Shown here one piece after another: positions 4,777 through 57,577 of a stretch of 64,000 nt of DNA. Positions within the stretch are counted from its first letter, which is position 1. Every line of letters begins with the position of its first letter. Location of the stretch: sequence record PQ433349.1. One strand, given 5' to 3'. A program made the translations under genes and the position numbers. The DNA is from Escherichia phage vB_Ec-G1. The notes under the pieces were generated by a model. The model was not told the origin of the DNA. It did no database searches and saw nothing but the letters and a program-made list of their open reading frames with translations.

Positions 4777-5838
4777 ATGGCGAAGCCAATATATTATCCT
4801 GACTGGGCTACACAAACTGTAACGCTCCCAGGAACTTTAAACACAAACAAAATTAGACCTAAAGAAACCATCCGCACAGTTGGTATGGATTATGGTCAAA
4901 TCATGACTTGCGAAGAAATGAACTGGATTCTTAATAATATCGGTTTATGGATTCGTTATTTGGTGGATGACTTTATTCCAACTTTACCTAATACTTACTT
5001 GCCTTTAGTTGGAACTAAGATTACAATGGCAGGCGATGCTACTGGTGAGGCTACTTGGAACGGTGATAAAGAAGTTATTTTATCTATCCAAGTTCAAGAT
5101 AACAGTCATAATCACTTATCGGCAAACATTACAGATGCTACTAGTTCAATAGTAACACCAAATGTGTTGGTAAAACGTGATGCAGGTGGTGCTATTTATG
5201 GTGGTGATGTTTATGTTAATGGTACTTCCACAACAGATCCTGCAACCCTGTTTTTCAAGAACTTTGCAGGACAGACTAATGGTGAGATTTCTGCCGAATA
5301 CCAAAGTGGAGGTCAGCTTTATATTTATCGTAGAAATCCTAGCACAGGTAGTGTAGCCGCAGGTGTTCGTTTATATGATGCAGGTTATGTTCTAATAGAC
5401 AATCCAAGATCAAACAATGGACAAGACACTTCTAACGGAAATGCTTTAGTTCGTTTAGATTATCTGAACTCTCGTTTGACTTCCCTTCAGAACACATTGC
5501 AGACGAATATTAACACTGTTCAAAACAACTTGAATAATGTTAACAACAACCTCTCTTCTCGTATAAACAATGTAGAAAGTAATCATCAAAGTCAGATTAC
5601 AAATAACTACAACTATGCTAACGGAACCTTTGTAAGAGATATTCGTTATACTAGCCAAGGTGTGTATTATCCACCAGGGAACGAGGTTTCTTGGACTTAT
5701 ATCTGTTCTTCTGGTTATGTTCTTTCTGGTATTATCGTACAGGAAACAGGACGTAGCTCTGCGGATAACATCGGTGGGGTTTACTTCAAACGCCTCCAGC
5801 GCAACGTTAACGGAAACTGGTACGATATTGGAGGCTAA
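4777..5838 (+). CDS. tail fiber protein
   Basis: 353 aa; Asn-rich coiled stretch NNLNNVNNNLSSRINNVESN; followed by Tfa-like chaperone gene. Confidence 0.55.
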   Translation: MAKPIYYPDWATQTVTLPGTLNTNKIRPKETIRTVGMDYGQIMTCEEMNWILNNIGLWIRYLVDDFIPTLPNTYLPLVGTKITMAGDATGEATWNGDKEVILSIQVQDNSHNHLSANITDATSSIVTPNVLVKRDAGGAIYGGDVYVNGTSTTDPATLFFKNFAGQTNGEISAEYQSGGQLYIYRRNPSTGSVAAGVRLYDAGYVLIDNPRSNNGQDTSNGNALVRLDYLNSRLTSLQNTLQTNINTVQNNLNNVNNNLSSRINNVESNHQSQITNNYNYANGTFVRDIRYTSQGVYYPPGNEVSWTYICSSGYVLSGIIVQETGRSSADNIGGVYFKRLQRNVNGNWYDIGG

Positions 5839-6384
5839 ATGATATTTACAAACTTTAAAAAATATATTCCTGAAGACCCTGAAATAAAAGAATTGGTAGA
5901 AGCAGAGAACATTCTTTTTCTTCGTTGCGATCAAGGTTACGATTGGTATGATTTACGTAGCACAGAATTCAATAACGATAAAATGAAAGTCGTTTTTGAC
6001 GATCAAAATCGTATTGTGTTTTGGAACACTGATCCTACATTACTTTGCCCTGAAGATCTTTCTATAGCACAAGTGGACTTTAATATAGACACTTTTGAGG
6101 ATATTAGAAACAAGGTTCTGGATTTAGAAACTTTGACTCTTAAGGATAAAGAGTATTCCCGTGAAGAGTTGATGACACAAGCTAGTGCAAAAATTCGCTC
6201 TTTACAAGAAACAGCGGTAGCACTTATAACACCTTTACAGTATGCTAAAGATTTAGAAATGGCTACTGAAGACGAATTAGCTTATCTTAAAAATCTTCAA
6301 GTTTATGTAGTTAAACTAAATCGTGTTCCGCTTCAAAAAGACTATCCTTACGCTATAGATTGGCCTACATTACCGACAGAATAA
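5839..6384 (+). CDS. tail fiber assembly chaperone (Tfa-like)
   Basis: C-terminal LQVYVVKLNRVPLQKDYPYAIDWPTLP resembles conserved Tfa C-terminus. Confidence 0.65.
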   Translation: MIFTNFKKYIPEDPEIKELVEAENILFLRCDQGYDWYDLRSTEFNNDKMKVVFDDQNRIVFWNTDPTLLCPEDLSIAQVDFNIDTFEDIRNKVLDLETLTLKDKEYSREELMTQASAKIRSLQETAVALITPLQYAKDLEMATEDELAYLKNLQVYVVKLNRVPLQKDYPYAIDWPTLPTE

Positions 6385-6393
6385 GGGATCACT

Positions 6394-6729
6394 ATGGAAT
6401 TTCAAGAAGCATGGGGACTTGCAAAGGATGCAATAATCCCTTTAATCGGAGTCATCTGGTTCTTTTTCAAACAAAAAATGGATAAATTCGGCTCTGATCT
6501 TGAGGAAATGGAGGAGAAAAGTCGAGAGCTAGAGAAGAAGTTGGTCTTTGTTGAATCAACTTATGCAACTAAAGCCGAACTTACCCAGATGCTAAATCAA
6601 ATTAACTCTACATTAATGGCAAATAATAACACCCTTGAGCAAAAAATTGAAAAGATTATGGACCTCAAGAATGCGACTATCCAAATGATGCTAGATGACA
6701 TAGTTAAACGTACACAGAATAAGGGGTAA
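6394..6729 (+). CDS. membrane-anchored coiled-coil protein
   Basis: N-terminal TM helix (IIPLIGVIWFFF) then coiled coil. Confidence 0.45.
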   Translation: MEFQEAWGLAKDAIIPLIGVIWFFFKQKMDKFGSDLEEMEEKSRELEKKLVFVESTYATKAELTQMLNQINSTLMANNNTLEQKIEKIMDLKNATIQMMLDDIVKRTQNKG

Positions 6730-6732
6730 TTA

Positions 6733-9700
6733 ATGGCAACATTCCCAACATATCCAGCAACGTCTCTCGAACAGGGCGTAGACCTGGTTATTTTCTCATC
6801 TAACCAACTCCATGATGTTATTAATGGAAGTGCTACAGAGAGTATTGAAACAGAATCAGGGTTGATACCAACCCTGAGAAAAGCCCTTGTTGACAACTTT
6901 TTCTTTAAAAGCCCATTGGATTGGGCGCAAGGCACAAACGAAACAGTTTTTAACCAACTTCGTTATTTCCAGAATGGAGTATTGAGCGGTTATTACTATG
7001 CCCCTAACGCTACATTGGTTAACCCAATCCCTATGCAAGGGACTCCAGTAGGAGATAACAACTGGGTATTGTGGGGACTGAAAACAGAACAATTAGCAAC
7101 AGAAGTCACCCCGTGGGTATACTCTGGTGCAACGGGTTATGAAACAGTAATTAGTCCTCCTTACATCTTTGATAGTGCTATTGTTACGATCAATGGTGTT
7201 ATTCAGGTTCTGGGGGAAGCTTTCCGTATAGAAGATAGTAAGATCATCCTATCTGAACCTTTGGGACACGATCCTGCAACAGGACTGCCAAACAAGCTTT
7301 TTGCTTACATTGGTAAAATCGTAGCTTCCGCAGATACAGATCCTAACCTAGAGAACCGTCTTGTCAGTTTAGAAACAAAAACGGAAGAACTAACAGAAAG
7401 CATGGATAAAGTCCCTCTGCAAACTATTGCTCGTAAATATGGTTTGTTAGATGATGAGGTGGCTTACGCAACAGCAGGTCAATCGTTAACAGGGATTAAA
7501 GCTCTGTATGATCCAGTAGCACAGTCTTCCTACACATTACCTCCTAACATCACAGGAACTTTAACATCCTTGTCTGTTTCTGGAGTAATGACTTATTCTG
7601 GGGGGTCTGTAGATCTTTCTGCACTAGCTGTTGAACGTGGACAGTTTGTTCATTTGCCTACAAGCTTTGGTAATAACGTAACTCTGACAGCTAAAAATCA
7701 GACGATTGGACGTGGTGCTGGTCGTTATCGTTGGGCTGGAAGTTTACCAAAAAGTATTTTGGCCTCCGATACATTGGAGACAAGTGGTGGATTAGGTCCA
7801 AATGCATGGGTTCTGACCAATACAGAAGGACTGTTAACCCCTCGTGGTGGAACATACAACGATTTATTCGATGTTGTCTACTTGTCAGAATTTGCTAACA
7901 ACACAACAACATATACCACACCAGAAGCAGCTTTCCAAGCGGCACTGTTAGCAGCAAAAGCTTCGAAAAGCAAGATTCTCGATGCTTACGGTTGCGATAT
8001 GACTTTCACGACAAGCTCTTTTGATATTCAAGGTATCACTTTGCGTGGGGGTGTGTTCCGTGGTCAACGCGACTATCGTGTGCAAAATGCTACAGTAGAA
8101 GGCACAACTTTCCGTAACTCTCGTGTTATGTATTGGGGTGGTGCTGTGCGCATGTTCGATTGTTTGTGGGACGGTGCTCCTCGCGCAGGTCAAGTTGGTA
8201 GCTTGGTATTCCAAGGCAACCCAATATCAGGTACTTTTGAAATTGATAATTGTACTTTTAAAAACGGGTTGTATGGCATCCTTCAACAAGGAACAGGGGA
8301 ACCAGTAACACGTGGTGTCTTCCGTAACCTTACCTTCATGGACATGCAAGGTGATGCAATAGAACTGAACGTCATCAATAAACATTATGACGATGGTTGT
8401 GTGATTGAGAATATTTACCTGTCTAATATCGATGGGACTAACGCTCCTATTCCTCTGTCCAACTGGGGTATCGGTATCGGTGTAGCTGGTAAAGGACCAT
8501 ATGGTTACGGAATCCCTGATGATCAATATTGCAAGAATATTACAATTCGTAACGTTTTTGCAAAACGTTGTCGTCAGATTGTCCACGTAGAAGTTGGTCG
8601 TAATATCTCTATCGAAAACATTCATGGCGATCCAGACCAGACCGTATCTGTTGGGACAGGTTTGGCAACTGGCGCAGTTGTAATGTACGGAAGTAAAGAT
8701 TTTACGATTGACGGTGTTTACGGAGAGCCTAAAACAGACGGTAGCACACTTGCAAGTAATATCCGTATGATTTATTTGGAGTGGGGAACTAACGCAGTTC
8801 TGGACGGAGAGGGTAATCCGGTAGTTCCGGCACAGGGTAGACCTTCAAACCCATGCTTTAACTATTCTGTTCGTAATATTCATACCAAAACTGGACGTGT
8901 TTTTGCGGGAGTTTCCGCTGGGCCAGGTTATGAAAACAGAGTTAGCTTTGAAAATATTCGTTGCGCTGCATTGCAGTTGTTCGGTATAGCTTCTTGGCTT
9001 TCAATGTCTAACATCACCTGTAATATCTTCGATTGTGTTGGTCAACCTGAATCTGGTCCAGGGACATTTTATGATGGATTCTTCCGTAGAGAAAAATCTG
9101 TTCTTGAAATGGTTAACGTAAACTGTTACCCAGATGGCAAGACGATGGTTACTGGTCGTCCACAGTGGAGCCGTTGCCGTTACTCGGATATTCATCGTGT
9201 CAACTGTAATGTTGAAGCTAATATGTATACCAATATCGCAGGTGGTATTGGAGCTATTGTAGGGACAACGGGCAAAGTTTATTACTTAGAGCCTAATCCT
9301 AGTCGAAACATTGATGGAATGCATTTCCCAACAGGGAAAGAGTTTGACAAAGGGGATATGATAGTCAAGGCGGATAATACGTTCTTCCTTGTAACAACAA
9401 GTGGGGCATATATTCCAGATATCCCAGCTTTCGGTATTCGAGCTACACAGGCAGGAGATACCTTCCTGACACAGAACTTGACTCCTAACGGGACAGCAAC
9501 AAATGCTTCTTGGTTGTATCATTACCCTCTGTCAGCAGGGACACGTATCCGTATTCCTGGTGCTGGCGTAGGTGGAGCAGATTTGGACACAGTTATTACT
9601 CGTGCACCTTATCAAGATAATGATACGTGGACTAACCCAGTTAAAATAGACATTGCAGATCCAATTGTAACGCCTACAAGTGCTGGAGTTAGAATTAAAA

Positions 9701-52660: not shown

Positions 52661-53017
52661 ATGAAAAAATTAATCTTAGCCACATTGCTGGCTACCGTAA
52701 GCTTCACCACTTACGCTCAAAAATTTGTAGCAGTTAAAACGGATATTGGTAAAGATGTTGTGATCACAGGCAACAAGTTTTACTATACACCTGGGAATGG
52801 TGTTCTAGAAGAGTGCAAAGATGTTGAGGCATATACAGGAAAAGAAGATAACACGGAACGTCCTTTTTATTCGATTATAGCTACTTGCAAAAATGAAATA
52901 GTAGCTATTAAACAATACAAAGATGCCCCTGGAGGAGAGTACTTATTAATCAAGAATATTAAGAGTGAAAAAACTGCAAAGTTTACAGTAATTATTTTAA
53001 AAGGAGAAACGTTCTAA
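52661..53017 (+). CDS. secreted protein with signal peptide
   Basis: MKKLILATLLATVSFTTYA signal peptide; GGAGGG RBS. Confidence 0.5.
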   Translation: MKKLILATLLATVSFTTYAQKFVAVKTDIGKDVVITGNKFYYTPGNGVLEECKDVEAYTGKEDNTERPFYSIIATCKNEIVAIKQYKDAPGGEYLLIKNIKSEKTAKFTVIILKGETF

Positions 53018-54156
53018 TGAAATACACTATTTTTGGAGATGTAGCTGTTGTAAATAAGGAATATGGCGTTGAAGCTAATAAACTTCCTGCTGGAGTTTGG
53101 GTTGTCAACTGCGATCCGCACGGTAACTACTCTTTAGTGCGTGGCGAAAGTTTCTCTCTTCCGAACACTCTTTATGGGGAAACTAAAGACCGCGCCGCAC
53201 ATGTTATTAAAACATTTGCTCGTCGTAGTAAAGAAGGTAAAAATACTGGGGTGTTACTGACAGGGACAAAGGGCAGTGGTAAGACGATGTTAGCTAAACT
53301 GATTAGCATGTCCCTAATGTCCACAGAAGGTTTAGGTATTCCAACCATTTTGGTGACACAGCCTTACACAGATGCTGGATTCTTAGAATTTATGAGTAAA
53401 ATTACAGATCGTGCTGTTGTTTTATTTGACGAGTTTGATAAAGTGTACGCTAAGAAAGAAGATCAGGAAGCACTGTTGACCTTGTTGGATGGAACAGGAA
53501 GTGGAAATAAACTTTACATCCTCACTAAAAATAGTGGCTATATCTCGGAATATTTTGTAAACCGTCCTAGTCGTATCTACTACAGTTTCAATTACGATAA
53601 ACTGTCTAGTGAAACTATGTTAGATTACTTGGATAAGAACTTGGTAAATAAAAAGCACGTAGATAACTTCCAACGTTTATGGGATGTTAGCACAGAGTTG
53701 TCTTTCGATGTTATTCAAGGCATTGTAGAAGAATTGAATTTCTATCCAAAAATGACTTTTAAAGAATGTCTTGAAATGATGGGTATTTCTTTAGGGAACG
53801 ATGCTAAATGGAATGTGGCTTCTATCGTAGCTAATGGCAAAACCTTGAAGGTGAATTGGATCAATAACTGGCACGACTTCACCCCTACTAAGTTTTTGTC
53901 GGGTGCTTGTTCCCTGAACATCTATCTACAAAGTTTGAAAGATGATGAAGTGGAAGCAATGGAAACCAACAGTTATGTTATCCTGGATGAAGATGGTGAT
54001 CCACATATTGATCTATGTGCAACGGCTGATGGTCTAACTTGTGATCTGATTGAAGGTGGTAAGATTCTGGTTATGAGCACTACACCAGGAAACACTCTGC
54101 GAGTGGTGCTGGAGCCTGTAACACAACGTTCCACTACTTTGGGTAGCGTATTCTAA
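53017..54156 (+). CDS. AAA+ ATPase
   Basis: Walker A GTKGSGKT, Walker B VVLFDEFD. Confidence 0.6.
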   Translation: MKYTIFGDVAVVNKEYGVEANKLPAGVWVVNCDPHGNYSLVRGESFSLPNTLYGETKDRAAHVIKTFARRSKEGKNTGVLLTGTKGSGKTMLAKLISMSLMSTEGLGIPTILVTQPYTDAGFLEFMSKITDRAVVLFDEFDKVYAKKEDQEALLTLLDGTGSGNKLYILTKNSGYISEYFVNRPSRIYYSFNYDKLSSETMLDYLDKNLVNKKHVDNFQRLWDVSTELSFDVIQGIVEELNFYPKMTFKECLEMMGISLGNDAKWNVASIVANGKTLKVNWINNWHDFTPTKFLSGACSLNIYLQSLKDDEVEAMETNSYVILDEDGDPHIDLCATADGLTCDLIEGGKILVMSTTPGNTLRVVLEPVTQRSTTLGSVF

Positions 54157-54172
54157 TAAGGCTCCCTTATTA

Positions 54173-54197
54173 AACCCGCTTCGGCGGGTTTTGTTAT
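54173..54197 (+). terminator. intrinsic terminator
   Basis: aacccgcttcggcgggtt hairpin followed by ttgtt. Confidence 0.7.
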
Positions 54198-54224
54198 ATT
54201 GATTTCAGTTTAATAGGAAGAGAA

Positions 54225-55226
54225 TTGTTAGATATGCCAGTAAAGAAGAGTATTGAAACATATATGGAAGAATGTAAGCCGATAGCTGAGGCTAAAGGGA
54301 TTACCATTCTCGGCACGTATGGAGAAGATAAAGGTGTGCATACGAAGATGATCAATCGTTGTGAACATGGTCATGAATGGAACACTACAACCTTTAATAA
54401 ATTTAAGTCTGGTCGTGGTTGCCCTGTTTGTAGGTATGAGAGAGCAGGACAAGCTAAAACTATTCCAGATGATCAGCACATACAAGATTTTATGAATACA
54501 GGCAAGTTTAAACCTGGGACTATCTTCACTAATACAGGAAAACGAGCTAAAGGAGGGCGCAATATTTTATGGTGTGTAGAGTGTCCTGTTTGTAGTGTTG
54601 ATGAATATGTTCAAGCGGGTGTCTGCAATGGTAAATTTTACTCTACAGGGAGTAGCCTTAAAAAAGGGCAAACCCCTTGCCGTTGTGCAACTAACTATCA
54701 CCACACAGAAGAACAGATCACCTACAGAACAAAGAAGGAAGTAGAGAGTAAAGGATACATTTGGATAGGATGGATCGGGAAACCTTTTGCACATGGTAAG
54801 TTTAAATATGGATGTAAGGAGCACGGAGAGCAGATAGGACGTGCAAGGGATTTATTACACCAGGGTAGTGGTTGTCCTGGTTGCGCTGGCAAGAATCAAC
54901 AACAGGCATACATTAACAACGTCTATGATGAACAAGGTGTTCTTTGTGCATTGAAGTTTGGCATTGCCAATAATAGCGATCAGCGTATTAAGATCCAGAA
55001 CTACAACAATGTGTTTACGATGAAACAAACCCAAGTGTGGCGCTTCCCTACTGTGAAGCAATGCAAAGATGCAGAGAAGCGTTGTAAGCGTGTCCTTCAC
55101 ACGGAAGCAGTGAGCAAATATTCTATGCCAGATGGCTACACAGAGACAGTGGAGTTATCTTGCATGGCATCAATACAAAATATTTATAAACTTTATGGTG
55201 GAACATTACAGGAGGAAACATGTTAG
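54225..55226 (+). CDS. zinc-ribbon-repeat protein with GIY-YIG/T5orf172-like C-terminal domain (tentative)
   Basis: Three repeats of C.HG..W ... G.GCP.C; C-terminal YINNVYDEQGVLCALKFGIANNSDQRIK; sits right after a terminator. Confidence 0.45.
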   Translation: MLDMPVKKSIETYMEECKPIAEAKGITILGTYGEDKGVHTKMINRCEHGHEWNTTTFNKFKSGRGCPVCRYERAGQAKTIPDDQHIQDFMNTGKFKPGTIFTNTGKRAKGGRNILWCVECPVCSVDEYVQAGVCNGKFYSTGSSLKKGQTPCRCATNYHHTEEQITYRTKKEVESKGYIWIGWIGKPFAHGKFKYGCKEHGEQIGRARDLLHQGSGCPGCAGKNQQQAYINNVYDEQGVLCALKFGIANNSDQRIKIQNYNNVFTMKQTQVWRFPTVKQCKDAEKRCKRVLHTEAVSKYSMPDGYTETVELSCMASIQNIYKLYGGTLQEETC

Positions 55227-55598: not shown

Positions 55599-55778
55599 AT
55601 GGCACGTTTAGCAGATCATGAAATCTTTAAACCTATTCTGAACCACTATGATGAACTTAAAGCAGTGTTGGATTGTTATAGAGAGGATGAAGAACGTTTG
55701 GAAGTCAATCTTAAGATAGTTCTGATGAAAGCTTTTCAAGACGGGCAAGCTAAAGTTTTAGAAGGCATGAAAAAATGA
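55599..55778 (+). CDS. hypothetical small protein
   Basis: GGAG RBS before internal ATG of track ORF 55563..55778. Confidence 0.4.
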   Translation: MARLADHEIFKPILNHYDELKAVLDCYREDEERLEVNLKIVLMKAFQDGQAKVLEGMKK

Positions 55779-56317
55779 GAATAACTGATGAATATGTATT
55801 CTTCTTTTCACATAAAGATGTGTTTAGTAATTGGTATATTGCACCCTTTACAGAAACTGAACCAGGTTACAATGAGACTTTCTGTTGTGTTGAGCAATAT
55901 ATGATGTGGCGTAAGGCTTTGCTGTTCAAGGATCATGCGATTGCAGCAGCTATCCTTGATCACTCAACTATACGTGACAACGAGAGGAAACAAGCATACT
56001 ACAAACGTATGGGTCGAGCGGTATCTGGTTTTAATAATGATATGTGGGAAGAGAACCGTGAGCGTATTGTTATGCGAGGCTTATGCTTGAAATATGTACA
56101 GAATCCAGATTTGTATGCAGACTTACACCTTTACCAATACAAAACGTTTGTTGAAGCAAGCCCCTACGATAAGGTTTACGGAATTGGAATGGGGATGTAT
56201 GAACCAGGGGTGCTAAACCCTGCTACCTGGAAAGGGCAGAATCTTTTAGGCAAATATCATAATAAACTGATCGAAATACTTTTCCCAGACAAAATACCGC
56301 AAAGACGATATTTGTGA
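55775..56317 (+). CDS. NADAR-domain protein (YbiA-like ADP-ribose processing)
   Basis: FSNWY, CVEQYMMWRKALLF, RMGRAVSGFNNDMWEENRERIVMRGLCLKYVQNPDL, ASPYDKVYGIGMG align with E. coli YbiA as recalled. Confidence 0.75.
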   Translation: MRITDEYVFFFSHKDVFSNWYIAPFTETEPGYNETFCCVEQYMMWRKALLFKDHAIAAAILDHSTIRDNERKQAYYKRMGRAVSGFNNDMWEENRERIVMRGLCLKYVQNPDLYADLHLYQYKTFVEASPYDKVYGIGMGMYEPGVLNPATWKGQNLLGKYHNKLIEILFPDKIPQRRYL

Positions 56318-56372
56318 TATTTTAACTTTTTTCATTTTTAGAACAAAGGTGTCACTTTGTAGCACAGAAATA

Positions 56373-56408
56373 AGGCTCCTACAGCACCGTAGAGAGCCTG
56401 TTATTTTG
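56373..56408 (+). terminator. intrinsic terminator
   Basis: ggctcctac agcacc gtagagagcc hairpin followed by tgttattttg. Confidence 0.6.
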
Positions 56409-56561
56409 TCCTATACAAACCCTTATCTTTTTCAGTTTGCATCACTAGGATTCGATCTAAGTGGGTTCCTGAAGGTCTGCCAATAAGATTAAAGGTTATC
56501 TCAAATTCCCACTACCTATTATCTCAAAAATCCCTCAAATTATTTAAACTTTTTAAGAATT

Positions 56562-56740
56562 TACAAAAGTGAAAGTTGAAAACCAAAATTTAAAGTTTAG
56601 GAAAATTATCTTAAAATGTTAGATACAAAACAAAACTCAAAAATCAAGGAAAATTTTAAAAATTTTGCGCGCCCACAGTATTTAAAGTTTTTTTGCTTTT
56701 ACAAAAATGAAAGTACAAAAGCAAAATTTAAAGTTTACAA
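56562..56740. repeat. two about 38-bp direct repeats in an AT-rich non-coding region
   Basis: acaaaagtgaaagttgaaaaccaaaatttaaagtttag (56562-56600) vs acaaaaatgaaagtacaaaagcaaaatttaaagtttac (56701-56740), about 33/38 identical. Confidence 0.6.
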
Positions 56741-56789
56741 AAATTTATGCAGATGGGAATGAGAAGAGTTCTCATATGGAAATGCAAAT

Positions 56790-56860
56790 GATAATGATTC
56801 GCATTTAGGTTTATAAATGAGATTGATTCTTATTCAATAAGGTAAATGATAATCATTCTC
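56790..56860. promoter_or_regulatory. pair of Fur-box-like sites
   Basis: gataatgattcgcatt and aatgataatcattctc versus E. coli Fur consensus GATAATGATAATCATTATC. Confidence 0.45.
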
Positions 56861-57097
56861 ATTTAAAGAATGACGCGCAGGGGCGGTGTTTGTCTCGCGC
56901 TCCCGTGTCCCCTCGCCATGTAATAAGAATAACAGATCCAGCCAGGAAAGCAAGCGATTATTTTATCTTTACATTTCTTTACAAATATATAGCGCCCAGC
57001 CTACCGGCGATCAACCTTCCAACCAGTGCCCCCTGGTATGTTAGCCCCGCCTTTACGCCGTGGGGTGGCGCTTCCTCTTCTGTATGTAAAACAGTAT

Positions 57098-57135
57098 AAG
57101 CCCGATCCCTGGGCTTGTCAAGATTATTTTTTGTT
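57098..57135. terminator. stem-loop with T-run
   Basis: aagcccgatccctgggctt hairpin then ttattttttgtttt on plus strand; also just past stop of minus gene. Confidence 0.4.
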
Positions 57136-57390
57136 TTCTTGCCAGGATAGGACACCTAACCAAAAATATATATCGCCCCGCGCCCCTGGTGGTATCTTGC
57201 TTTCCCCGCCGCCACTGCAAGCCCATAGATAACCATTTGCGAACGTATCAAAATGATCTATCTCTTCCACCTTATGATCGCCCAGGTTGAGAACGGTTTC
57301 AACCTTTAAGCCCGTTGCGCTTGCTACCTGGTGCACCGTGCCGCCTTGCCAGCCCAATGAGTGCATAAGGTGTAATGTAGTATTTGTCAT
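57124..57390 (-). CDS. hypothetical protein in GC-rich island
   Basis: Track ORF 88 aa; codon usage unlike rest of window. Confidence 0.45.
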   Translation of the reverse strand: MTNTTLHLMHSLGWQGGTVHQVASATGLKVETVLNLGDHKVEEIDHFDTFANGYLWACSGGGESKIPPGARGDIYFWLGVLSWQENKK

Positions 57391-57499
57391 GGTATCGCCC
57401 TTTCTTTGATGTGCGCCCTGGTTGGCGCGGTAGAAAGATGATAGCCCTTTCTTTTATATATAGCAAGCAAAAAGAAAATAAAAAAGATTGAAAAAGTGA

Positions 57500-57556
57500 T
57501 TGACGTTCGCCAGGTGGCGGCATAATATTTACCACGTAGGGCGGCAATGGTGCCGC
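57500..57556 (+). promoter_or_regulatory. promoter plus leader hairpin cassette A
   Basis: TTGACG-17-TAATAT, then ccacgtagggcggcaatggtgccgc hairpin. Confidence 0.6.
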
Positions 57557-57577
57557 TCATTATTTGGAGTTAAAATC

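Follow-up and report, generated by a model that had tools for sequence, protein, structure and literature searches.

The AT-rich stretch at ~56411-56757 of the phage DNA analysed here looks, on its sequence, like a cis-acting DNA site that binds protein. It forms the left-hand, lineage-specific portion of a ~800-nt non-coding control module at the head of an early-gene block. The presence of a functional cis-acting repeat array in this gap between modules, as an earlier note on this DNA held, is well supported because the motifs are near-unique, the repeats are conserved islands, and an equivalent array exists in related genera and in a second subfamily. The anatomy of the stretch, its non-coding status, its uniqueness in the genome and its conservation within and between genera were observed directly. 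As for its role, the best single guess is that the stretch works as a transcription-activated replication origin, a tentative reading that we hold at rather less than even confidence.

Anatomy of the AT-rich stretch

Positions 55700-57500 of the window (the whole 64-kb stretch of DNA that was analysed) match the Phapecoctavirus genomes UP17, ukendt, ESCO13 and phAPEC8 at 97-99% identity. These phages are virulent myoviruses of the Stephanstirmvirinae with genomes of ~148-152 kb, and by this match the locus is part of a phAPEC8-like coliphage genome of the ~148 kb type. Window position 56.5 kb corresponds to 142.7 kb in phAPEC8. The gene-free gap covers 806 nt (56318-57123). To its left lies a + strand operon whose last gene encodes a NADAR-domain protein (55775-56317), and to its right a long series of small + strand early genes starts at ~57500, preceded by TTGACG-17-TAATAT and a conserved leader hairpin. 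The earlier placement of the region between operons agrees with this gene layout. The ~450 nt that had been described as lacking an ORF are indeed non-coding, but the gap is longer than that, at 806 nt. Some GenBank records label parts of the gap 'repeat_region' with no comment. The gap and its borders hold the following features.

56307-56323, + strand: tandem GATATTT motif GATATTTGTGATATTTT, overlapping the stop codon of the NADAR-domain gene (55775-56317)
56373-56409, T-rich tails on both strands: two-way intrinsic terminator with hairpin AGGCTCCTAC...GTAGAGAGCCT, the left module boundary
56497-56528, + strand: TATCTCAAA boxes at 56497 and 56520; a third variant, TATCTTAAA, lies at 56607-56615
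56536-56607, + strand: direct repeat copy A, 72 nt, containing ATTTAAACTTT (56542) and ATTTAAAGTTT (56588)
56617-56673: A-rich, fast-evolving spacer ending in the A/T tract AAAATTTTAAAAATTTT and a GCGCGCC clamp
56674-56745, + strand: direct repeat copy B, 72 nt, containing ATTTAAAGTTT at 56680 and 56726
56758-56865: Fur-box-like array of ~4 palindromic units with a 29-nt period (repeat families D1 and I1)
56866-57123, - strand: conserved GC-rich non-coding block (51% GC), probably transcribed leftward
56926-56953, - strand: predicted promoter P2, -35 TTGCTT (56953-56948), 16-nt spacer, -10 TATTCT (56931-56926)
56966-56982, - strand: tandem box GTAAAGAAATGTAAAGA, GTAAA-N5-GTAAA, just upstream of P2
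57093-57121, - strand: predicted promoter P1, TTGACA, 17 nt, TATACT, preceded by an A-rich tract
57124-57390, - strand: 88-aa early gene immediately upstream of P1, annotated in ESCO13, phi92 and others

The GC content is 27.7% over 56411-56757 and 24.3% over 56495-56757, against 39.5% for the whole window. A 347-nt scan of the 64 kb places the minimum (23.9%) at a segment starting at 56517, and the next lowest value elsewhere is 31.4%. The same spot holds the lowest-GC 300 nt (25%) of the complete phAPEC8 genome (147.7 kb). The region had been called AT-rich, and it is the lowest-GC site of both the window and that genome. These minima also provide the adjacent AT-rich unwinding stretch that is expected of an iteron origin. 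The spacer between the two repeats is itself a candidate for an easily melted stretch.

The best 38-nt pair within 56411-56757 starts at 56560 and 56698, so that the copies lie 138 nt apart from start to start with 100 nt between them. The earlier note had reported 38-bp repeats separated by about 100 nt, which holds, with an identity of 33/38, which measures 34/38. These 38-mers are the core of the longer 72-nt repeats, which match at 59 of 72 positions (82%) and are likewise 138 nt apart. Against 300 dinucleotide-preserving shuffles, whose best ungapped repeat scores averaged 9.9 +/- 1.2 with a maximum of 14, the observed score of 34 was never reached (0/300), and the 72-nt pair is far beyond chance.

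The core motif of the repeats, ATTTAAASTTT, occurs four times (56542, 56588, 56680 and 56726), always on the + strand. It is found nowhere else in the 64-kb window, where 0.35 copies were expected, and four of its five copies in the phAPEC8 genome are at this locus. The two + strand TATCTCAAA boxes are the only ones in the window and in the whole of phAPEC8. With TATCTTAAA at 56607 they confirm the repeated unit tatctcaaa that had been noticed before; of the second unit proposed, ccctcaaatt, only the shorter CTCAAATT recurs, twice. GATATTTNNGATATTT has a single occurrence in the phAPEC8 genome, at this locus.

The AT-rich stretch is non-coding. Its only ORFs are one of 48 aa on the + strand (56616-56762) and two paralogous ones of 20-22 aa on the minus strand. 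The frame of the former is broken by a 1-nt indel in the lineage of phiWec186, phiWec188, phiWec190 and L103, and all differences of the latter from the phiWec/L103 lineage are non-synonymous, so neither was retained as a gene. Neither strand of the stretch folds beyond its shuffles (z = +0.58 and +0.24), and an Rfam covariance search left nothing above the gathering threshold and nothing but noise at E<10. These results do not support a structured small RNA or a known Rfam family.

The control module in related phages

An alignment of ten Phapecoctavirus versions separates the group of the window from the phiWec/L103 group. The flanking genes of the two groups are 86-96% identical, and the spacers at 56411-56494 and 56617-56666 only 50-59%. 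The block with the TATCTCAAA boxes and repeat A (56495-56616) retains 75-76% identity, and the repeat B block, with a nearly invariant core, 81-83%, which makes it the best conserved AT-rich element. The repeats, at 75-83%, are therefore conserved islands in a decayed spacer. The TATCTCAAA boxes are kept in the phiWec lineage although the spacer flanking them is there only ~50% identical. The spacer at 56617-56673 is 57-59% identical to that of the sister lineage and carries an indel, with the A/T tract and GCGCGC retained. The terminator, which is the ARNold terminator annotated in phAPEC8 at 142550-142576, has its stem preserved in the divergent phiWec lineage.

The same module layout is found in Justusliebigvirus (alia, phi92), in Klebsiella phage FBKp34 and in Vequintavirinae, including CR3, phiTE, PVP-SE1-like phages and several IMG/VR contigs. 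From left to right, the order is GATATTT repeats, TATCTCAAA-type boxes, long direct repeats, Fur-like palindromes and the GC-rich block. Phi92-like and rV5-like relatives have 2-4 copies of GATATTT at the same place despite a different upstream gene. The TATCTCAAA-type boxes are clear in Phapecoctavirus and in rV5-like contigs, which carry three similar boxes at the same place. The slot of the long repeats holds two or three direct repeats of lineage-specific sequence in phi92-like, Klebsiella FBKp34 and rV5-like phages; such turnover in a fixed slot fits sites co-evolving with a phage protein. The phi92-like repeats have a TTATTTAAAGTTTTT core in common, and this motif of repeat B recurs in the three tandem 66-77-nt repeats of the phi92-like phage alia. 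The rV5-like units are ~97 nt long (GGTTCTCGATCG...CGTATTT...GAAAAAATTTTT), are rich in GATC, with 5-7 sites in ~160 nt of array, and contain one AnTn tract each. Clustered GATC sites are carried by origins under Dam/SeqA control. A scan of IMG/VR with the NADAR protein returned five loci only. By these comparisons, the ~800-nt control region is evidently common to several families of large virulent phages. Searches of the literature on these genera yielded nothing relevant on origins or repeats, and apparently neither the composite module nor its conservation across subfamilies has been described.

The GC-rich block of the module is highly conserved. Between Phapecoctavirus sublineages it is 96% identical (flanking genes, 86-96%), and its core has a mean column identity of 87% across two subfamilies. 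Since its indels do not come in multiples of three, the block does not code for protein. One pair of a hairpin in the block covaries without exception (AU:11/GC:8); the remaining pairs are invariant, so the evidence for an RNA structure is modest. The block had no match in Rfam or in 5,426 E. coli genomes, and its single match among 185,579 species genomes is a mis-binned phage contig, which disposes of a host origin.

Two things that the earlier note missed, the Fur-box-like array and the pair of conserved promoters firing into the repeats, alter how the region is read. The two predicted sigma-70 promoters are directed leftward, across the Fur-like array, into the AT-rich repeats. P1 scores 11/12 in a promoter scan and matches in form the annotated host-dependent promoters of phAPEC8 and the early promoters of this phage; its hexamers are kept across lineages while its spacer has diverged. 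The TTGnnn and TAnnnT of P2 are found at 16-17-nt spacing in 17 of 19 lineages, with unrelated spacer sequences, and GTAAAGAnnnGTAAAGA is present just upstream in 18 of the 19 lineages checked. The GTAAA-N5-GTAAA box upstream of P2, a single occurrence in the window, is presumably of the CpxR type, going by the published consensus. Its distance from the -35 is 3 nt in 12 rV5-like and Klebsiella-type lineages and 6 nt in contig L046; in Phapeco- and Justusliebigvirus it is 12-13 nt, about one helical turn more. The TTTAC/GTAAA half-sites in the repeats were rejected as further sites of this type, their mild enrichment being confined to Phapecoctavirus. The repeats were likewise discarded as a sigma-70 promoter array: the best candidate scores 9/12 and is unlike the early promoters (TTGACA-17-TAnnAT plus leader hairpin), and a minus-strand TTGTAA-16-AATAAT is not retained in the phi92-like repeats.

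The array between the promoters and the repeats consists of predicted Fur boxes, identified by the Fur consensus. Its best boxes are TGATAATCATTCTCA (56847-56861), the window's best match to the 7-1-7 consensus TGATAATnATTATCA with one mismatch, and TGATAATGATTCGCA (56789-56803), with two; compared with the 19-mer consensus, the agreement is 16/19. A blastn search with 56756-56873 matched the array in phi92-like, rV5-like and T5-like phages. A literature search on Fur boxes in lytic phages yielded nothing relevant, and none of the papers searched names these palindromes Fur boxes.

The neighbouring genes encode the NADAR protein, a CapR-domain endonuclease, an AAA+ ATPase with weak loader-like matches and the 88-aa protein. 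The last belongs to phrog_19316 (function not assigned) and has no Pfam match; its AlphaFold model (pLDDT 94, five helices) gave no significant relative in a structural search. An initiator gene adjoining the stretch was not recognised among these neighbours.

A possible replication origin and its alternatives

A transcription-activated origin could work as follows. One or more phage-specific proteins would bind the same-orientation motifs, the four ATTTAAASTTT of the two 72-nt repeats and the three TATCTYAAA. P1 and P2 would send RNA polymerase leftward through the Fur-box array into the stretch, the most easily melted DNA of the genome and free of ORFs, and the two-way terminator at 56409-56373 would end transcription. 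The passing polymerase would melt the duplex or supply an RNA primer, in the manner of the T7 primary origin or T4 oriF/oriG, with host Fur and a CpxR-type activator at P2 gating the process. Protein binding, transcripts running through the stretch and all origin activity are what we infer here.

Several observations favour an origin. The AT-richest site of the genome carries on one strand four of its five ATTTAAASTTT, both of its TATCTCAAA and its only GATATTTNNGATATTT, and repeats beside an AT-rich stretch are the usual signature of an origin (PMC7145576). The hexamers of P1 and P2 are kept while their spacers have diverged, and both point into the ORF-free stretch. As in R-loop-type origins, the predicted promoters face an easily melted stretch without ORFs and with a terminator beyond it. 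The lineage-specific turnover of the repeats, the GATC clusters of rV5-like phages and the AAA+ ATPase gene 2.3 kb upstream, with its weak helicase-loader/clamp-loader similarity, are further points in favour.

An origin had been suggested before, and as a best single guess the suggestion survives, but not in the classical iteron format and not by the GC-skew test. The cumulative GC skew, proposed as a check, has no inflection at the locus (phAPEC8 142.7 kb); it peaks at 23 kb and reaches its minimum at 135 kb, both of which are switches in gene orientation. The authors of the rV5 genome likewise found that GC skew followed gene orientation, and no origin was located (PMC3606486). As skew follows transcription in these phages, the test carries little weight. 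The + strand genes to the left of the site do have a higher skew than those to the right, which is the opposite of the prediction for a bidirectional origin. As for iterons, the units are long (46-138 nt) and the 11-nt cores inside the two 72-nt repeats are spaced by 46, 92 and 46 nt rather than ~22 nt; at least three short direct repeats (about 17-22 bp) in helical register are not present. The DnaA box TTATNCACA does not occur in the window's module. A further point comes from T5, whose origins were mapped near the genome centre, and the Fur-like array of T5-like phages lies in the injection-stop region (10.1101/866236). The position of this counterpart, away from the mapped T5 origins, counts against an origin here.

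Nearly as likely as an origin, and so a real possibility, is a regulatory or architectural protein-binding array that takes no part in replication; a regulator-binding array, too, had been suggested earlier. An early protein of the phage, host nucleoid proteins or both would occupy the repeats and A/T tracts. Where the NADAR operon meets the early block, the array would modulate transcription or insulate it, for instance by tuning P1, P2 or a Fur-controlled promoter, or by stopping read-through. The stretch does adjoin the Fur-like array, the CpxR-type tandem box and several promoters, its motifs are unique to the locus, and AnTn tracts are typical of curved upstream DNA. Operators usually overlap promoters, however, and these repeats lie 170-560 nt downstream of P1 and P2, not upstream. 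They would lie upstream of a rightward, Fur-repressed promoter if the TTGAAT-18-CAGAAT/TAGAAT of rV5-like phages, with a Fur box over its spacer, is one; this putative promoter is poor in the window (GTAAAT...AAGAAT), and the -11 A, which is essential, is lost in some lineages.

Action at the level of RNA is unlikely. The repeats would then be the 3' part of a leftward, non-coding early transcript from P1 and P2 and would sequester an RNA-binding protein of the host or a defence nuclease. Two conserved promoters aiming into an ORF-free stretch would suit such a transcript, and there is a known case in an rV5-like phage, which counters an abortive-infection toxin with non-coding RNA repeats that can expand (pseudo-ToxI; PMC3475682). 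The absence of a folding signal or Rfam match for the stretch weighs against this reading, and a Fur array between promoters and repeats would be odd for a constitutive decoy RNA. The units of 46-138 nt are not head-to-tail, unlike the 34-40-nt repeats of type III antitoxins, and the phiTE pseudo-ToxI locus is 67 kb from the module. A ToxI-like or pseudo-ToxI-like element was accordingly rejected, the 72-nt units being 138 nt apart and the phiTE locus elsewhere.

Two further readings concern the entry of DNA into the cell. Both draw on the phi92-like phage BME3, for which a 342-bp terminal repeat was reported by PhageTerm (PMC12210895). The repeat is annotated at 146957-147298 and maps to a second non-coding gap, equivalent to 6.6-6.9 kb in phAPEC8 and ~11.6 kb to the right of the module; BME3 is from a different genus, and additional copies of the repeat are present in its record. 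The BME3 repeat contains TGATAATGATTATCA and TGAGAATAATTATCA, with zero mismatches and one mismatch to the Fur consensus, so that together with the module array predicted Fur-box clusters bracket the ~11-kb early block. The T5-like array, for its part, lies ~9.6 kb from the genome end, with DnaA boxes and 7-9 direct repeats on its flanks; in the T5-like phage EC100, whose sequence was read directly, it lies between paired DnaA boxes and seven GTGCAAATCCGAC repeats. Davison assigned this position in T5 to Repeat Region 3/iss and did not call the palindromes Fur boxes (10.1101/866236).

In the broader form, which we regard as speculative and improbable, the repeats, Fur-box array and promoter block would act together as a checkpoint on the state of the host. 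It would sit where an ~11-kb early block that enters first has its inner edge, the block being bracketed by Fur-box clusters, one in the module and one in the terminal repeat, and it would be the same device as the T5 injection stop. If this were true, three unrelated virulent enterobacterial phage groups would gate DNA entry, the start of replication or both through Fur, and an envelope-stress regulator would also be used in this phage; alternatively, the phages may titrate Fur as their DNA multiplies.

The narrower form, a pause or stop signal for DNA entry like that of T5, with the module at the inner edge of the block that enters first, is more doubtful still. A blastn match ties the array to the DRC/pal palindromes of T5-like phages at Repeat Region 3/iss, the BME3 module lies ~11.6 kb from the terminal repeat with only small early genes between, and the inward order (early genes, Fur-like array, direct repeats) is the same in both. 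Two-step transfer has not been reported for these phages, however. The early block consists of small ORFs, with no large T5 A1-like gene evident among them. The paired DnaA boxes, 3 bp apart, that are Davison's T5 signal are absent from the module, which contains no TTATNCACA, and the rV5-like phage phiTE is described as circularly permuted (PMC3475682) and would then have no fixed first-entering end.

A remnant of slippage or duplication in unconstrained spacer, with no function, is very unlikely: the interval as a whole does evolve much faster than its flanks, but the repeats are more conserved than the spacer, the core of repeat B is nearly invariant, the core motif is shared across genera, and every related lineage retains a repeat array in the same slot. 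A packaging signal (a pac or terminase recognition site) or terminal-repeat boundary, also suggested earlier, is scarcely credible. Direct repeats in a unique non-coding gap would suit such a site, some database records begin near the gap, and there is a precedent in T5, whose terminal-repeat boundary falls in the repeat region beside the Fur-like array (10.1101/866236). The nearby record starts are arbitrary, however, since these entries are labelled circular and one of them begins within the NADAR gene; ~80 kb separate the module from the terminase gene; the terminal repeat of BME3 is in a different gap, which makes a packaging role unlikely with the physical ends of a phi92-like relative ~11 kb away; and phiTE is described as circularly permuted.

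Comparison with known systems

The rV5-, phi92- and phAPEC8-like phages are common candidates for therapy, and none of these groups has a defined origin, entry signal or early control region. The locus is a concrete, testable candidate for a control region or origin where the attempt by GC skew failed in rV5. The repeats may be of less consequence than their context, namely Fur and CpxR and the connection with the T5 injection stop. A similar Fur-box-like array occurs in three otherwise unrelated virulent phage groups, including the unexplained injection-stop region of T5. As sequence evidence, this array together with the CpxR-type site suggests that lytic phages read the iron and envelope state of the host.

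Four known systems resemble parts of the module. Multiple, closely spaced boxes matching the consensus (TGATAATCATTCTCA) are found in Fur-repressed regions such as the aerobactin iucA promoter, of which AATGAGAATCATT is the core too. The phage array differs from iucA-type regions in being part of a virulent phage and in lying downstream of conserved promoters, not over them. This likeness concerns the flanking Fur-like array and not the AT-rich repeats.

T5 Repeat Region 3 (10.1101/866236) has a homologous palindromic array (blastn, 76-85% over 55-90 nt) and, like the module, direct repeats beside that array, ~10 kb from a genome end and at the inner edge of early genes. The T5-like phages have paired DnaA boxes and short GTGCAAATCCGAC repeats in place of the AT-rich 72-nt repeats, and are without the GC-rich block. 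Two-step injection is documented for T5-like phages only.

Iteron origins (lambda ori, P1 oriR, SPP1 oriL/oriR and iteron plasmids), with which the non-coding, repeat-bearing region of PLE (PMC7145576) was compared as one group, also have same-orientation repeats at one locus beside an AT-rich stretch, and their repeat sequence changes between lineages, as it does here. The phage repeats differ in their units of 46-138 nt, in the 46/92/46 spacing of the cores, and in having no 17-22-bp helical phase, no initiator and no DnaA boxes.

The T7 primary origin and T4 oriF(uvsY) and oriG(34) are the systems on which the origin reading is modelled. They too have promoters directed into an ORF-free, AT-rich stretch in the early phase, and they need no dedicated initiator gene next door. 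The phage locus departs from them in having two predicted host sigma-70 promoters, in the ~230 nt of conserved GC-rich sequence and the Fur-like array between these promoters and the AT-rich DNA, and in carrying repeats within the AT-rich part itself.

The GC-rich non-coding block and its promoters

The region to the right of the AT-rich repeat stretch of phage vB_Ec-G1 contains, beyond an array of Fur-box-like palindromes, a GC-rich block whose nucleotide sequence is conserved across the Stephanstirmvirinae and Vequintavirinae. The features of the locus are as follows, in window coordinates.

53017-55226: two genes preceding the NADAR gene, for an AAA+ ATPase and an endonuclease containing a CapR homology domain
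56307-56323: GATATTTGTGATATTTT, overlapping the NADAR gene stop codon
56758-56865: array of Fur-box-like palindromes, directly right of the AT-rich stretch
56866-57123, minus: GC-rich non-coding block
56886-57232, plus: ORFs annotated over the GC-rich block
56966-56982, minus: CpxR-type tandem site
57124-57390, minus: 88-aa early protein (phrog_19316)
57500-57558: early promoter and leader hairpin

The block holds two conserved leftward sigma-70 promoters, P1 and P2, both predicted, and a hairpin in which one base pair covaries. A search of Rfam gave no match for the block, and it was not found in bacterial genomes except in L112 (JAEZZU010000352.1), a 4-kb contig binned in a "Proteobacteria bacterium" metagenome-assembled genome. 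This contig is a mis-binned Phapecoctavirus fragment spanning the same locus. The block probably either encodes an early non-coding RNA not yet described or is densely bound by proteins. Some records annotate plus-strand CDSs across it (also phAPEC8 gp009 and Schickermooser gp168/169), one of them labeled "frameshift". These are probably artefacts, since the block has indels of lengths not divisible by three, and both the conserved promoters and the gene for the 88-aa protein lie on the opposite strand.

Close upstream of P2 is GTAAAGAAATGTAAAGA, a perfect tandem site of the CpxR type. Of 19 lineages examined, 18 have it, and the spacing between it and the -35 element varies from one subfamily to another by roughly one helical turn. 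These features suggest an envelope-stress input into this promoter of a virulent phage.

Neighbouring genes and early transcription

The 88-aa protein is modeled with very high confidence as five helices (pLDDT 94), and no solved structure is significantly related to the model. Conservation covers the first 40 residues of the protein, whereas the remainder varies between lineages. The 3' end of its gene appears to be partly duplicated within the GC-rich block, in Phapecoctavirus only. AAATATATAGCGCCCAGC (56983-57000) is similar to AAATATATATCGCCCCGC (57164-57181).

Early promoters, present upstream of many early genes and corresponding to the "PHIRE" sites of phAPEC8, are canonical, with an A-tract, TTGACA, a 17-nt spacing and TAnnAT. 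Downstream of every such promoter, the early mRNA carries one and the same leader hairpin, GTAGGGCGGCAATGGTGCCGC, at its 5' end. Although annotated in phAPEC8 as a phage promoter, this element has the appearance of a conserved stem-loop at the RNA 5' end.

On the other side of the locus, the AAA+ ATPase gives weak clamp-loader/DnaC-like matches. In every related lineage, whichever gene lies upstream, two to four copies of GATATTT occupy the position of the NADAR stop codon motif.

Fur-box-like palindromes and the genome ends

Fur-box-like palindromes also occur in four other loci (L004 1500-1620; L008 1960-2080; L009 1890-2070; L111 1086-1427). The palindromes are not named Fur boxes in any paper found by the literature search. 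A second gene-free gap of 1.5 kb (phAPEC8 5500-7020, L099), about 10 kb past the right end of the window, contains several Fur-like boxes. It is the counterpart of the terminal-repeat region of the phi92-like phage BME3, and the physical genome ends are therefore probably located there. The 342-bp terminal repeat of BME3 itself contains two predicted, near-perfect Fur boxes. By blastn, the array at 56758-56865 is matched in phi92-like, rV5-like and T5-like phages, and in the T5-like phages it sits within the injection-stop region.
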